A DNA stretch of 64,000 bases from Spirochaetota bacterium (GTDB taxonomy: Bacteria; Spirochaetota; UBA4802; JAFGDQ01), in assembly GCA_043803405.1 (NCBI GenBank), contig JAZDKB010000019.1, positions 128,001 through 192,000 on the forward strand, in the 5' to 3' direction. Under the pieces are notes generated by a model. It saw only the letters and a list, made by a program, of their open reading frames with translations, did not search any database and was not told the DNA's origin. Position numbers and translations under genes: made by a program. Below, piece after piece: positions 5,827 to 16,156 of the stretch. The first letter of the stretch is position 1, and every line of letters starts with the position of its first letter.

Positions 5827-6390
5827 TTAAAGGCCGCGCTTTTGCAAAAATTTAAGGAAGAAGATAATTGCAGCGCAGATAATAAATATAAGAATCCAGT
5901 GGAAAGGCGCGCTTAACCCGGCTATATCGGGTAAGGTTATTTTGCCATAGGATCCCAATTTAAATAATGAATCCTTTAATGAAGAATAGGCTTTTGCATA
6001 AATGCCTGCTCCTGCAAGCATGCCAGGAATAGCCCCGAATAAAGCGTCAAACCGGCCTTCGGAAACAGCACCTATTCCTGTTGTCGGGCAATATCCTGCA
6101 ATGGCGAATCCTATACCGAAAATAAGACCTCCAAGAATATTTGCGCCAACATAAGTTGATTTTGGCTTCAGTGTAAGTATGCCGATATCCCTGAAAAAAT
6201 AAATACCTATCATGCCAACAATTATTGCGGTCAGCATAACTTTAATCATTGTAAAGTCTTTAAGCCTTAATTGGCCTACAATTGTTTCATAGCGGGTCAT
6301 TCTGCTTTTTTGAATCGAAAATCCAAAAATAATACCAATAAGCAAACCTGCTATAAGTTTAAGTTCCGGTGATGAAATAAAAGGAGCCAT
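5827..6390 (-). CDS. YeeE/YedE family (thiosulfate/sulfur compound transporter) half-protein, Cys form
   Basis: GLLIGIIFGF..., GGLIFGIGFAIAGYCPTTG motif; hydrophobic helices; SD GGAGG. Confidence 0.9.
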   Translation of the reverse strand: MAPFISSPELKLIAGLLIGIIFGFSIQKSRMTRYETIVGQLRLKDFTMIKVMLTAIIVGMIGIYFFRDIGILTLKPKSTYVGANILGGLIFGIGFAIAGYCPTTGIGAVSEGRFDALFGAIPGMLAGAGIYAKAYSSLKDSLFKLGSYGKITLPDIAGLSAPFHWILIFIICAAIIFFLKFLQKRGL

Positions 6391-6908
6391 TATTTACCTC
6401 CTTTCCCATACATTATACGGGCTGTAATGATACCCGTTAAAAACATAAAAGGTACAGTAAGCCAGCTGCTTACTGCAAGCTGCAGGATCCCACTGATCCC
6501 GTGTCCCAGTGGTCAACCGTCTGCCATGCGGGCGCCGAACATAAGTATAATTCCGCCAACGAAAGCAAACAGCCAGCGGCGCAGCCTGCCTGTTCCGAAA
6601 CGTTTTTCCCACATTTCAGGGATGAACCTGTTTGCCATGTTACCTGAAAGTTTTGCTGAGATAAATGCTCCGATCAGGCATCCGATCACAAACATCCATT
6701 GCCAGTCAATCATCGGTGTTTCTTTAATGTAGTAAGGCAGGTTTTTAACGTATTCCGGTGCAAAGATTTTTTCAATCATACCGGATGTGCGCACATAGGA
6801 GGTTGACGCGCCGAGCGGCGCTATTGCCAGAAAAGCTATCCAGCTTAAAAGCCCGATTATCACTCCTCCTGCATACGGCGACCAGCTTTCTTTTTTTAAC
6901 CAGTTCAT
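6390..6908 (-). CDS. YeeE/YedE family half-protein, probable selenoprotein (in-frame TGA at 6513-6515)
   Basis: ATG at 6908 with RBS CAGGAG; WSPY.GG, LGAST, GARMADG-TGA-PLGHGISG matches the family GARxAxGCxSGHGxSG motif; frame continues through a hydrophobic helix to TAA 6390-6392 overlapping the next ATG. Confidence 0.85.
6483..6512 (-). promoter_or_regulatory. candidate bacterial SECIS hairpin
   Basis: CGGGAUC-AGUGG-GAUCCUG stem-loop starting 11 nt after the UGA, G at loop position 2. Confidence 0.6.
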
Positions 6909-7229
6909 ATATATCTCCTGATTATAAAAAATTTTAAACTCGCGAATAATAATTTTTAATTTTATTATTTCCGTACGACTTTTTGTTGATTTTAAAATGA
7001 TAAAGTTAAAAATGAAGAAAGTCAATTTTATTTCACAAATTCTGTAATTGTTTATTGAATATTAGTATAGTGCGCGAACAGATATCCGGCATCGAATCCG
7101 GAAGAAGGCCGGATTGCTCCGGCACAGATTGTTGCGGGAAAACCATAAGTTAAATATAAACTTTTATTTTTCTTGACGGATTTTATACTGAATTATTAGA
7201 GTATAAAAAAATCAATCAGGAGGCATGTT

Positions 7230-11755: not shown

Positions 11756-12577
11756 TTAACTGATTATGCTTTTGTAGGTTTTTTTCTGAAAGCAGATTTT
11801 TAATGTAGAGTCTTCCCAGCGTTTTCCCTGCTCAAGGCGTTTTACAAAATCCGTGCTGTCGCCGACAACTCGGCCGCCTACCACATCAACGCCGCAGGCA
11901 AAGAGCGGATCGGGAAAATATCCGGCAGTAGGGCCAAGAACGGAAACAAAAGCATCCGGTGAACAGTTGGCCAGAACATTATCCAGCGAATTGTTCAACA
12001 CAGTGACGCCTGTGCATAAAATTTTATTGCATGATGCCAGTTGTGTCACGTCAAGTGTGATCGGCAGGTTGCGGTATTTTTCCAGCAAAGATTCTTTTTT
12101 TTCTATTATGATCAACCCGGCTCCGGCCTTTCTAATAGTATCAATTAGCCCGGCAAACAGTCCGACCATGCCGATCCTGTCACCTTTCCCGACCGCAAGC
12201 AGCCCAAGCGAATCTGTGACAGTATCATACGGGAAGTTTGTCTCCTTCATTACGTGCTGGCAGACAGCATTAATCGCTGCCATGCTGATCATCTCTTTCA
12301 GGGGATCTTCATTGCCGAATTCGAGCGCAAATCTTTGCGGGTCCTTTCCCGCAAAATCCTCTGGCTTTAATGCAGCGTATTCCGGCATCTTCTCGTCGGG
12401 AAGAAGAATAAAGCTTATGCCGGTTGCGCCGCCTTCGAGGACAATAGCCATGAACTGGGCATCCTTGGGCTGGCCGCCTTTATGAAAAGGAGGAAGGAAA
12501 ATTTTCGCAATATGCGGGATAGCATACTTCGCACTTAACAAACCAATCATTTTTTTAAATTCATCTTTTAGATTCAT
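11756..12577 (-). CDS. DUF364 / Rossmann-like domain protein
   Basis: AAINA, IGMVG, TGVTVLNNSLD..L, LGPTA..P..LF..GV..VGG pattern; start uncertain (12577 or 12610). Confidence 0.8.
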   Translation of the reverse strand: MNLKDEFKKMIGLLSAKYAIPHIAKIFLPPFHKGGQPKDAQFMAIVLEGGATGISFILLPDEKMPEYAALKPEDFAGKDPQRFALEFGNEDPLKEMISMAAINAVCQHVMKETNFPYDTVTDSLGLLAVGKGDRIGMVGLFAGLIDTIRKAGAGLIIIEKKESLLEKYRNLPITLDVTQLASCNKILCTGVTVLNNSLDNVLANCSPDAFVSVLGPTAGYFPDPLFACGVDVVGGRVVGDSTDFVKRLEQGKRWEDSTLKICFQKKTYKSIIS

Positions 12578-12628
12578 AAAATACCTTGATCCGTCCGTCG
12601 CTGAAATCAATCGTACTTAACAATTTTC

Positions 12629-13582
12629 TTAAAGCTGACTGATTGCCTCACTTAGAATTGCGGCTGAAGAATGAAGCGCTGCAAGCTCATGCTCCGGAAA
12701 ATTGTTCTCGACGATTCTGCTTACTCCTTTGCCGGATACGATGCAGGGCACGCCGAGACATACATTGCGAAGTCCGAATTCTCCGTCGAGCATGGCTGAA
12801 ACTGTAAGAACACTGTTTTGTCCCCGGAGGATTGCGGCACTTATCCGGATAAGTGCAAGGCCCACGGCGAACCATGTAGCGCCCTTGTACCCGATAATGT
12901 GGTAGGCGGATTCGCGTACAGCCTGCTCAATCCTGGCTCGTTCGGCGGGCCAATCGTCGCAACGGCCGCAAACAGAGCAATATGCGTCGATAGGCATGCC
13001 GGCAATATTTGTCATAGACCATGCTGCAAATTCGCTGTCGCCGTGTTCTCCAAGTATATATCCATGAACGTTGTGAACGTCAACATCGCAATGAATGCTA
13101 AGTAAGTGCCTCAGGCGGGCGCTGTCCAGAACAGTGCCTGACCCCATTATCCGCGTACGGTCCCATCCGGTGGACTTGAGTGCAACGTAAGTCATAAGGT
13201 CAACCGGGTTGCTGACCATAAGTATTACTGCAGAAGAATTCTGCTCAATAATATCGGTCATAATACTGCGGATAACAACAGCGTTCTTCTTCAGCAGATC
13301 AAGTCGCGTTCCACCCAAACCATGTGTCGCACCTGCGGTGACTACGATCAGTTGTGCATCTGCGTAATCGGATTTATTGCCTGTGTGGATGGATACTGTC
13401 GGAAAGAACGGCTGACCATGTACCAGGTCGAGCACTTGCCCGCGGGACAGATCTTCGTTCTTATCGATCAGTGCGATATCTTCAGCCAGTCCGCTTTGAG
13501 CAAGTGCGTAGCAGAATGCGGATCCGACCGCCCCTGCACCGACTACCGTGACTTTCCGTCCCTTTGGCGAATAAGATAGCAC
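12629..13582 (-). CDS. ldh: L-lactate dehydrogenase family 2-hydroxyacid dehydrogenase
   Basis: VGAGAVG, TRLDLLKKN, SNPVD, GSGTVLDSARLR, GEHGDS, KGAT. Confidence 0.9.
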   Translation of the reverse strand: MLSYSPKGRKVTVVGAGAVGSAFCYALAQSGLAEDIALIDKNEDLSRGQVLDLVHGQPFFPTVSIHTGNKSDYADAQLIVVTAGATHGLGGTRLDLLKKNAVVIRSIMTDIIEQNSSAVILMVSNPVDLMTYVALKSTGWDRTRIMGSGTVLDSARLRHLLSIHCDVDVHNVHGYILGEHGDSEFAAWSMTNIAGMPIDAYCSVCGRCDDWPAERARIEQAVRESAYHIIGYKGATWFAVGLALIRISAAILRGQNSVLTVSAMLDGEFGLRNVCLGVPCIVSGKGVSRIVENNFPEHELAALHSSAAILSEAISQL

Positions 13583-13712
13583 TGTTTCTCCTTGACTGGC
13601 TGGTATTTTAGCTGATGCTCCTGCATTGCAAAAATAGCCGGTATAATTCTGTCAAATCGAACGATTTCAAACACCGGTAATAATTATAAGATAAGTTTCA
13701 CTGATTTTTAAA

Positions 13713-13740
13713 CCGGGGGCTTGCCCCGGAGAATTTTATT
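13713..13740. repeat. dispersed palindromic repeat copy 1 (GGGGCTTGCCCCGG.GAATTTTATT)
   Basis: CCGGGGGCTTGCCCCGGAGAATTTTATT overlapping the hemerythrin stop codon. Confidence 0.85.
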
Positions 13741-14272
13741 TTAGCTCCAGATCGGCAACTAATGCCTCGTACTTTTCATGTATCATTTTTCTGTCAAATT
13801 CCCGAAACTCTGAAAGCATCTCCCGATCTTCTTCTGCAGTAAAGTAATTCCGGGAAGCCGGAAAGAATATATTGTCTTCCTTCATAATATGTTTCGGATA
13901 AAACTCGGTGATAGTTTTAAGGCGGGCTATTACCCTCGGAAATGATGCCGAATCGCCGTTGTGGTAACGCGCATTGGCATCGGACAGTGATTGTGTGGTT
14001 TTTCTTCCAAGCATATGGTCCTTAATGAGTTCGTCCATCAGCTGATTATCTTTGTCCGACAGCTTTTTTTTCTTAAGCTTACTGAACAGGATGTCTTCTT
14101 CCTTCCCGTGATGTGTACGGTCTGCATATATCCTGATGAAATCAACTGCTGTATCAACAAAATACGGATCAATAAATAGCGTTTGTCCGGCAATTTCCAG
14201 TTTTTTCTGGATCACAGTGATCATCTTTTCGATCAGCCTGTGTTCTATCATAAGAGGTCCCCGCGCTTGCAT
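13736..14272 (-). CDS. hemerythrin (HHE cation-binding) domain protein
   Basis: LMIEHRLI, HHGKEEDILF, DH..GR, HIMKEDNIFF. Confidence 0.9.
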   Translation of the reverse strand: MQARGPLMIEHRLIEKMITVIQKKLEIAGQTLFIDPYFVDTAVDFIRIYADRTHHGKEEDILFSKLKKKKLSDKDNQLMDELIKDHMLGRKTTQSLSDANARYHNGDSASFPRVIARLKTITEFYPKHIMKEDNIFFPASRNYFTAEEDREMLSEFREFDRKMIHEKYEALVADLELK

Positions 14273-14448
14273 GTTTTATCTCCGTTTTTAATTATAATGA
14301 CACAGTAAATATTCCGCGTAAATTATAATCTGTGATAATATGAAAGTCAAAAGGAATTTATAAAATTGTATTTAACCTGCAATAAAAAAGGTTATTTCGG
14401 AAAGGGCTAAACAATTAACCATCGGGGAAGGTAAGGTATAATGTAGTA

Positions 14449-14979
14449 TTACTTTTCAAATTGTCTATCGACCTGAAAGAAATTAATTTCTGTTTTATTA
14501 TGAAAAAGATCGCGTACTTTCTCTCCGGGTTTATGGTAAGGAGCAGGACCGATTAAAAAATTCGAAAGATACATATTAAGGTGAGACAGATCGCCATCCG
14601 GCTCGGTTAACAGCCACATCCGTGCGCCTTTAATCAAATTATTCATGTTGCCTGACAGGCTTCTGTTTTTTGTGCGTGCGTAATTAATACTGCTCAACTC
14701 TTTTAATTCGATTTCAATTTTTTCTTTATCGAGTCCTATTGACTTTAACAATATTTCCAGTGACTGAATAAATCGCGGTATTATAGAGGATAATTTTTTT
14801 GCAGGTATAATGACGGACAACGTAGTTATTTCATTCGTAAAAATAATAAACTGATTACGGCCGATATTGAAATAATCTGCATACCAGTCACCAAGGATAT
14901 TGGAAGAAATAGTTCCTTCTTTGATCTTGGTAATATGAAGCTTTTCCAGTAATTTCTTAGTGCACCTGAGATTTACCAT
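14449..14979 (-). CDS. DUF6933-like protein
   Basis: LRCTKKLL..LGDWYA..NE.T.LS..TKNRS..G.MN pattern. Confidence 0.65.
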   Translation of the reverse strand: MVNLRCTKKLLEKLHITKIKEGTISSNILGDWYADYFNIGRNQFIIFTNEITTLSVIIPAKKLSSIIPRFIQSLEILLKSIGLDKEKIEIELKELSSINYARTKNRSLSGNMNNLIKGARMWLLTEPDGDLSHLNMYLSNFLIGPAPYHKPGEKVRDLFHNKTEINFFQVDRQFEK

Positions 14980-15004
14980 TAAATAATTTTCCGTAAAATT
15001 TTAA

Positions 15005-16156
15005 TTAAAGCGTGGTCATTTTAATTAAACGATCCTTTAACTCTCCTGGTAAAATATTGTTTGCTTCTACAAAGATCAGCCTTGGCACACCGCCAAAGAT
15101 CTCATAAGCCCGGTTTAGAATCCTGTCGTCCCAGATGTCCCTGATATCGTTCCGAATATATTTTTCAGCACATAAAGCCAGTCTCAAGCCGCCTAAAAGG
15201 TTAACGACCCAGCGGTTGCCTGCTCCTGCGATCAACTGGCTTTTATACGGATCGAACCATAATTTTCCCCCAAGAGGAACATTCGCCCTGATATAAAGCA
15301 GCCATGCAAGCGATACCATATCATGAGCTACTACGGACCCGGATGCGAATATAAGGCCGTACTCGGGTTGAGACACATATCCCTCGTCTGGTCCGCCGGT
15401 TGTAAGCACTTTGTCTGCAGTTGTAACTACAAGCCGCTGCTTTTTCAGAAGTGTACTGACTGTATTGCTTTCGGCAGCTTTCTCCTGAAGAGTGGAAGCA
15501 TCACCATGAAATTCAAGCCGCGTATCTGTCCGCCAGTAACCCACGGCATTTTTAATGCCTAGGGTGCTGCCTGTCAGTATATGACGGCTGCAGCGCGGCA
15601 TAAGTATAATGTGATCTACTTTTTTTAAAATGTCCGGCATCATAAGTCCGCGTTTCCAGTGCGAGCCTGCAACAGGGAAATCCTCATAAAAAGCATTCCA
15701 GCCAGCCTCCTCAAAAAAATGTATTTCACCGCCGCTTGTCAGAACAGGTTTTGCCAGGCCGGAGGTCACCATTAGATGCCGGGTGCTGCCCAGTACTCCT
15801 TTACGCGAAAGTTTTACGTGCTGTATACCTGCCATATCTCCCACGATTACGCGGCTAGCGCCCTTCTCCTTTAATATTTTAATCATCACCTCAACAGCTG
15901 TCGGATTCGTGGTGGCCGGGTAAGCATAACCGGAGTTAAGGGCAGGCTTGATAAACACATTGTCGCCTTTTGACAGCCATGAAAAGTCGGTAATTGTTTC
16001 TATAGTTGACCTGATTGCGGACTTCATGTCCTGTTCAGGCGATCCCTTCCGCACTGCTGCGAGAGCGACTCGGGTTTTGCTCCCGGATCCCGGAATTGCC
16101 GCTGAATTGGTGTTTACGGATGATCCTGAATTTTTATTGCAGTTTAATTTGTCCAT
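15005..16156 (-). CDS. DUF362 domain protein
   Basis: GDNVFIKPA, TTNP, GA..VIVGD, H..TG.TLGIKNAVG, VAHD. Confidence 0.85.
   Translation of the reverse strand: MDKLNCNKNSGSSVNTNSAAIPGSGSKTRVALAAVRKGSPEQDMKSAIRSTIETITDFSWLSKGDNVFIKPALNSGYAYPATTNPTAVEVMIKILKEKGASRVIVGDMAGIQHVKLSRKGVLGSTRHLMVTSGLAKPVLTSGGEIHFFEEAGWNAFYEDFPVAGSHWKRGLMMPDILKKVDHIILMPRCSRHILTGSTLGIKNAVGYWRTDTRLEFHGDASTLQEKAAESNTVSTLLKKQRLVVTTADKVLTTGGPDEGYVSQPEYGLIFASGSVVAHDMVSLAWLLYIRANVPLGGKLWFDPYKSQLIAGAGNRWVVNLLGGLRLALCAEKYIRNDIRDIWDDRILNRAYEIFGGVPRLIFVEANNILPGELKDRLIKMTTL

Follow-up and report, generated by a model that had tools for sequence, protein, structure and literature searches.

The window, that is, the whole stretch of 64,000 nucleotides that was analyzed, carries on its minus strand two adjacent half-size genes of the YeeE/YedE family, the first of which contains an in-frame TGA that almost certainly serves as a selenocysteine (Sec) codon. 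The features of the locus are:

6997..7025, minus strand: candidate sigma-70 promoter, a 10/12 match to the consensus, about 90 bases upstream of the gene pair
6908→6390, minus strand: C-half YeeE/YedE half-size subunit (PmpA-like), 172 aa with predicted Sec132, from PF04143 and the alignment to 6LEO/8J4C
6515-6513, minus strand: in-frame TGA, predicted Sec codon, codon 132, motif GUPLGHG, from homologous loci
6483..6501, minus strand: predicted bacterial SECIS, 7-bp stem, 5-nt loop with G as its second base, loop 18 nt after the UGA, -8.4 kcal/mol
6390→5827 (5827..6390), minus strand: N-half YeeE/YedE half-size subunit (PmpB-like), 187 aa, matching PF04143 positions 2-150 of 310

The table-11 ORF list ends the first gene at position 6513. 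Translation through the TGA reproduces the frame put forward in the original prediction: positions 6390-6908 give 172 residues and a TAA, with the TGA at codon 132 as the single internal one, in the context GARMADG-TGA-PLGHGISGILQLAVSSW...GKGGK-TAA. As also foreseen, the TAA (6392-6390) overlaps the ATG of the partner gene, with which it shares one base, and the last predicted helix lies in the read-through part. The read-through protein matches PF04143 over positions 171-309 of 310 (E 3e-27); in a homologue truncated at the TGA, the match covers only 171-280. When 76 full-length homologues are aligned to the read-through protein, Cys is invariant at the TGA column, and so are G135, H136, G137, S139, G140, Q143, S147, W149, F156 and G159, all encoded 3' of the TGA. 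The original prediction had set the TGA at the Cys of a family motif, GARxAxGCxSGHGxSG; the consensus of the 76 homologues at this column, GARWAGGCTSGHGISG, bears out the motif and the place of the TGA in it, but the window gene itself departs from the motif in having Leu where the family has Ser134. The partner gene carries a separate AGGAGG immediately before its ATG, and for this reason we discarded the idea that its translation is obligatorily coupled to read-through. A 10-pair hairpin followed by a T run, with a terminator-like score, lies inside the read-through part (window 6477-6453, minus strand); should ribosomes halt at the UGA, this element might, speculatively, influence transcription entering the partner gene. 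The promoter is a weak candidate, defined by consensus match only, since 9 such sites were found against 5.9 +/- 2.2 in shuffles.

A contig scan found 104 relatives, the best 80 of which were analyzed as homologous loci. The codon at the TGA column is TGA in 57 of these 80 and TGC or TGT in the other 23, with no other codon present (kin are not independent of one another in this or in any other count of homologues or SECIS elements given here). A chance TGA and an assembly error at this position are thus excluded, and the TGA is not the isolated nonsense mutation that the original prediction had held out as an alternative. GUPSG is the motif in 52 of the 57 TGA relatives, and GUPLG, as in the window gene, in 5. 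This alternation between TGA and Cys, together with the conservation 3' of the TGA, supports the proposal that Sec recoding occurs in a YeeE/YedE transporter. The search of the genome for sel genes that had been suggested along with that proposal was also positive: selD (itself with an internal TGA), tRNA-Sec(UCA), selA and selB are clustered at C26:6414-12197 (plus strand), the proteins scoring over curated cut-offs. A methyltransferase-like ORF, so labelled from a motif, lies within the same cluster.

A bacterial SECIS, according to the criteria set out in PMC13188914, has a loop of 3-9 nt, a stem of 4-16 bp, a G in the first two loop positions, a spacing of 16-37 nt and an MFE at or below -7.5. 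The hairpin at 6483..6501 agrees with all of these, the optional N1-N2 loop pair being absent, and its geometry is that of the hairpin after an FdhA-type TGA in the same genome. In the source genome, only 4 of the 395 long open frames that end in TGA are followed by a hairpin of this kind with an energy of -6 kcal/mol or below. In the six-sequence GUPLG subclade, 42/42 cells of the stem are paired, with one two-sided change, A-U in the window and G-C in the other five; this exchange alters two amino acids together (GISGI in the window, GVSGT in the other five), and 69 of 500 shuffles also yield a single such change. Taken by itself, the folding energy does not reach significance (z -0.85 over 61 nt and -0.13 over 38 nt). 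Moreover, over the 38 nt, a competing fold that hides the SECIS loop is 0.4 kcal/mol more stable in naked RNA; its 5' arm, however, lies within 10 nt of the codon on the 3' side and should be covered by the ribosome. Among rows at least 40% identical, a G-loop hairpin at -4 or lower is found in 46/46 distinct TGA rows versus 9/24 Cys rows, by a threshold chosen after the sequences had been seen, and the synonymous-shuffle z-scores of TGA and Cys rows do not differ significantly (Mann-Whitney p 0.076). The SECIS hairpin is supporting evidence for Sec, and not the main argument. In relatives, at least two other hairpin registers follow the same codon (the L034-L086 and L038-L081 groups), and synonymous two-sided changes in the hairpin are seen in some, for example L052, L080 and L086 versus L040. 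These differences in register and the synonymous changes indicate that the SECIS was reshaped as the family diverged.

The partner half adjoins the C-half in 78 of the 80 homologous loci (best 80 of 104 relatives), always with its Cys, and the two half-genes are the only PF04143 matches in the source genome. Both are homologous to YeeE/TsuA of Spirochaeta thermophila (6LEO, 8J4C; E 2e-6 and 9e-10). U132 aligns with Cys293 of that protein (numbering counted from the alignment), partner Cys101, in GYCP, with Cys91, and partner Thr32 with Cys22. In the account of the pore given in PMC11073785, the cysteine relay of YeeE runs from C293 (first) through C91 (second) to C22 (third), and C91 and C293 are described as indispensable in PMC11582611. 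Because U132 corresponds to Cys293 and the partner Cys101 to Cys91, the TGA occupies, in a split channel, the outer of the two essential relay positions. Unlike StYeeE/TsuA and E. coli TsuA-TsuB, the window system is split, with the C-half preceding the N-half; it further differs from StYeeE/TsuA in having Sec for Cys293, Thr at Cys22 and no adjacent YeeD/TusA gene. The TsuA/YeeE thiosulfate-transporter equivalog is defined by a full-length chain of 330-350 aa, three relay cysteines and the NCBIfam cut-off; the window pair falls short of it, its 39-62 bits lying far below the cut-offs of 400 and 645, and reaches none of the NCBIfam equivalog cut-offs. PmpA and PmpB of Serratia and Hyphomicrobium, likened to the window pair by description, are likewise encoded by two adjacent half-size genes with one relay cysteine each, and a heterodimer of the two halves has been put forward (PMC11582611); however, the window halves are longer (172 and 187 aa, versus about 130 aa), and it is the PmpA-like half that carries the Sec. 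An AlphaFold2 model of the single 172-aa half was of low confidence (pLDDT 63, pTM 0.42, residues 130-147 below 50) and is given no evidential weight; a Foldseek search with this model gave nothing that reached E 0.001, and YeeE 6LEP, with an E of 2.5, ranked first.

The pair sits between aroE and a small divergent gene, with no YeeD/TusA neighbour, and TusA-like domains are encoded elsewhere in the genome. Neighbour clustering across the 80 homologous loci revealed no conserved operon beyond the YeeE pair, and the neighbourhoods of these loci held no consistent clue to the substrate. Elsewhere in the window (11756-16156, minus strand), DUF364/DUF4213 and DUF362 genes flank two ORFs that we take to be lactate-dehydrogenase-like and hemerythrin-like.

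From the comparison of sequences, we have little doubt that the TGA at 6515-6513 is read as selenocysteine. The best overall explanation, to which we assign a probability of about 0.93, is that the gene encodes the Sec-containing half of a split YeeE/YedE channel, with Sec insertion directed by the hairpin. The hairpin 3' of the UGA would recruit SelB-GTP-Sec-tRNA, causing Sec to be inserted at residue 132, and the 172-aa and 187-aa products would then pair to rebuild one YeeE/YedE channel. Homology and gene pairing make it likely that a heterodimer of the two halves restores the YeeE fold. In the relay, Sec132 would be the first and outermost residue (Cys293) and partner Cys101 the second (Cys91), the third (Cys22) being represented by Thr. 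The selenolate may provide a more reactive entry site for a reduced-sulfur cargo. We lean slightly toward thiosulfate, polysulfide or sulfane sulfur as that cargo, imported through the two-residue Sec-Cys relay.

With the same Sec recoding, the pair could instead import selenium, as selenite, selenide or selenosulfate, for the selenoproteome, which we regard as unlikely. YedE-type proteins have been linked to selenium transport (PMC9312934; introduction of PMC11582611). In the source genome, moreover, all that is left of the canonical selenium-related YedE (TIGR04112) is a C-terminal remnant next to a TusA/YedF-like gene; 3 of 4 relatives searched have this protein intact. One of these, the genus mate G002, nevertheless carries both an intact TIGR04112 YedE and the Sec pair, so that the two are not simple substitutes. 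Furthermore, no sel gene family was found in the neighbour clusters seen in at least 3 of the 80 loci (19 cluster representatives scanned), and a selenium importer that itself requires selenium would be an awkward design under scarcity. The selenium-metabolism YedE proteins (TIGR04112, NF033796) belong to the same superfamily as the window pair but are full-length, with 337-387 model positions, and the window pair scores 35-41 bits against their cut-offs of 200 and 350. They are not known to be selenoproteins. The yedE remnant (C13:38826-39284, plus strand) retains only the C-terminal 69 model positions and is followed by the intact TusA/YedF-like gene and, on the opposite strand, by a short fragment resembling SelD; full yedE genes are present in G001, G002 and G006, and the broken copy reflects either gene decay or an assembly fault.

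It is very improbable that the TGA is a true stop, resulting from a nonsense mutation or an assembly error or marking a naturally shortened 131-aa subunit. Database annotation would agree with a stop, in that 42 of the best 120 protein-database matches end at the TGA codon (of the rest, 75 have GC..GHG and 3 show neither pattern), but the TGA recurs at the 57 loci across many families and the frame 3' of it is conserved and equally long: 55 of the 57 remain open for 38-41 codons to the next stop, like the Cys forms, one for 47, and one is cut by a contig end. Termination at the TGA would, in addition, cost the subunit both its equivalent of the essential Cys and its last predicted helix. Moreover, selA scores over cut-off in every TGA-bearing genome examined (25/25, the sample covering 25 of the 57), versus 17/23 Cys-bearing genomes, these being mostly incomplete MAGs related to each other. 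Decoding of the TGA as Trp, Gly or Cys by a variant code or a suppressor is less credible still, because TGA is an ordinary stop that ends 319 of the 1672 open frames of at least 300 codons in the source genome, which excludes genome-wide recoding, because the sole UCA-anticodon tRNA called there is tRNA-Sec, and because neither TGG nor any other codon occupies the TGA column in the 80 loci.

The preferred reading, a Sec-containing channel half, places the window gene in a family that is on record. Reviews of selenoproteomes, PMC9312934 among them, include in their lists an entry for the YeeE/YedE family (PF04143, GUxSG, one Sec), and supplementary file 4 of PMC5029168 (Peng 2016) counts 5 such proteins in 5 organisms; neither 'YeeE' nor 'YedE' occurs in the main text of PMC2398784 (Zhang and Gladyshev 2008), which the reviews cite for the family. 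A literature search, with most subscription journals outside it, found no function for the Sec form of a YeeE-type protein. Like the catalogued proteins, the product of the window gene belongs to PF04143 and has a single Sec, which stands at the cysteine of GC.SG. The catalogued GUxSG motif, a descriptor in the review and not a strict rule, fits the GUPSG of the 52 relatives; the GUPLG of the window gene lies at the same column, one substitution (Ser to Leu) away, and groups with GUPSG forms in the tree, although the GUPLG forms (the window gene and 5 of the 57 relatives) differ from the catalogued type in having a SECIS register of their own as well. Subfamily identity with the review example WP_012471001.1 rests on family and motif. 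The window gene is a mis-called further member of an already catalogued selenoprotein family and the family itself is not new, which settles the point on cataloguing that the original prediction had left aside; the discovery is modest for this reason. The annotation ought to cover all 172 aa, including U132, since gene callers cut a real gene short, and the share of best database matches ending at the Sec codon indicates that such truncation is common. With TGA in 57 of the best 80 relatives, the family is also much commoner than the 2016 count.

Within the class, a match at E 1e-25 or better was found in 9 of 122 genomes, with TGA only in the source genome and its genus mate G002; a search with the window query did not find the Sec half in G001 (90% complete) or in four other family members. 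A spirochaete host, as originally suggested, fits, the closest named match among the best 80 of 104 relatives (L019, 83% identical) being from an uncultured Leptospirales bacterium. Next come four Syntrophaceae or deltaproteobacterial MAGs at 73-76%, which share the GUPLGHG variant with the window gene. A quick IQ-TREE analysis of 88 concatenated pairs, with TGA read as X, left out L007, L018, partnerless loci, identical rows and five closer Cys homologues (P0004-P0008, 63-68% identical). In this tree, the window, L019 and the four Syntrophaceae or deltaproteobacterial rows form a clade (SH-aLRT 99) beside mostly Desulfobacterota rows, and the Sec/Cys character changes 6 times, with at least 2 changes forced by strong branches. 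The simplest reading of these relationships is that the cassette was probably gained horizontally from Syntrophales-like Desulfobacterota.

In a more distant split-YeeE subfamily, the TGA lies in the partner (Cys91-like) half, as GY/F-U-PG, and the C-half keeps its Cys. Of 110 loci examined, 108 yielded the motif, and 8 of these have this form: L013:807-1415 (minus strand), L014:861-1448 (minus strand), L101, L129, L144, L169, L176 and L195. In each, a SECIS-like G-loop hairpin follows the TGA, and the frame stays open beyond it for at least 79 codons. The form does not match the single GUxSG entry of the reviews. Two of the genomes concerned (G009, G015) have selA and selB, and a third (G090, 65% complete) gave no selA match. 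The genes of this subfamily adjoin polysulfide/tetrathionate-reductase-like operon genes and a rhodanese gene. We raise only tentatively, as a rather doubtful proposal, that split YeeE/YedE channels took up Sec separately at the Cys293 site, with three SECIS registers, and at the Cys91 site, where the distribution of Sec calls for a minimum of 2 and a maximum of 6 changes on a tree. If so, the repeated exchange of Cys for Sec would point to covalent or redox chemistry in the pore, such as a selenopersulfide relay, in contrast to the current description of the YeeE pore, in which thiosulfate is bound by hydrogen bonds; a comparison of the natural Sec and Cys variants could reveal whether covalent chemistry takes place at the relay residues.

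A dicodon-plus-hairpin scan of the source genome (TGA, downstream hairpin and coding signal on both sides), the output of which is not a full selenoproteome, gave 23 candidates. Besides the window gene and SelD, they include in-frame TGAs followed by similar hairpins at C4:209431 (plus strand), C4:215690 (plus strand) and C4:83719 (minus strand), in genes that, from their motifs, we take to encode FdhA, HdrA and a HesB-like protein; most of the remaining candidates look like noise.
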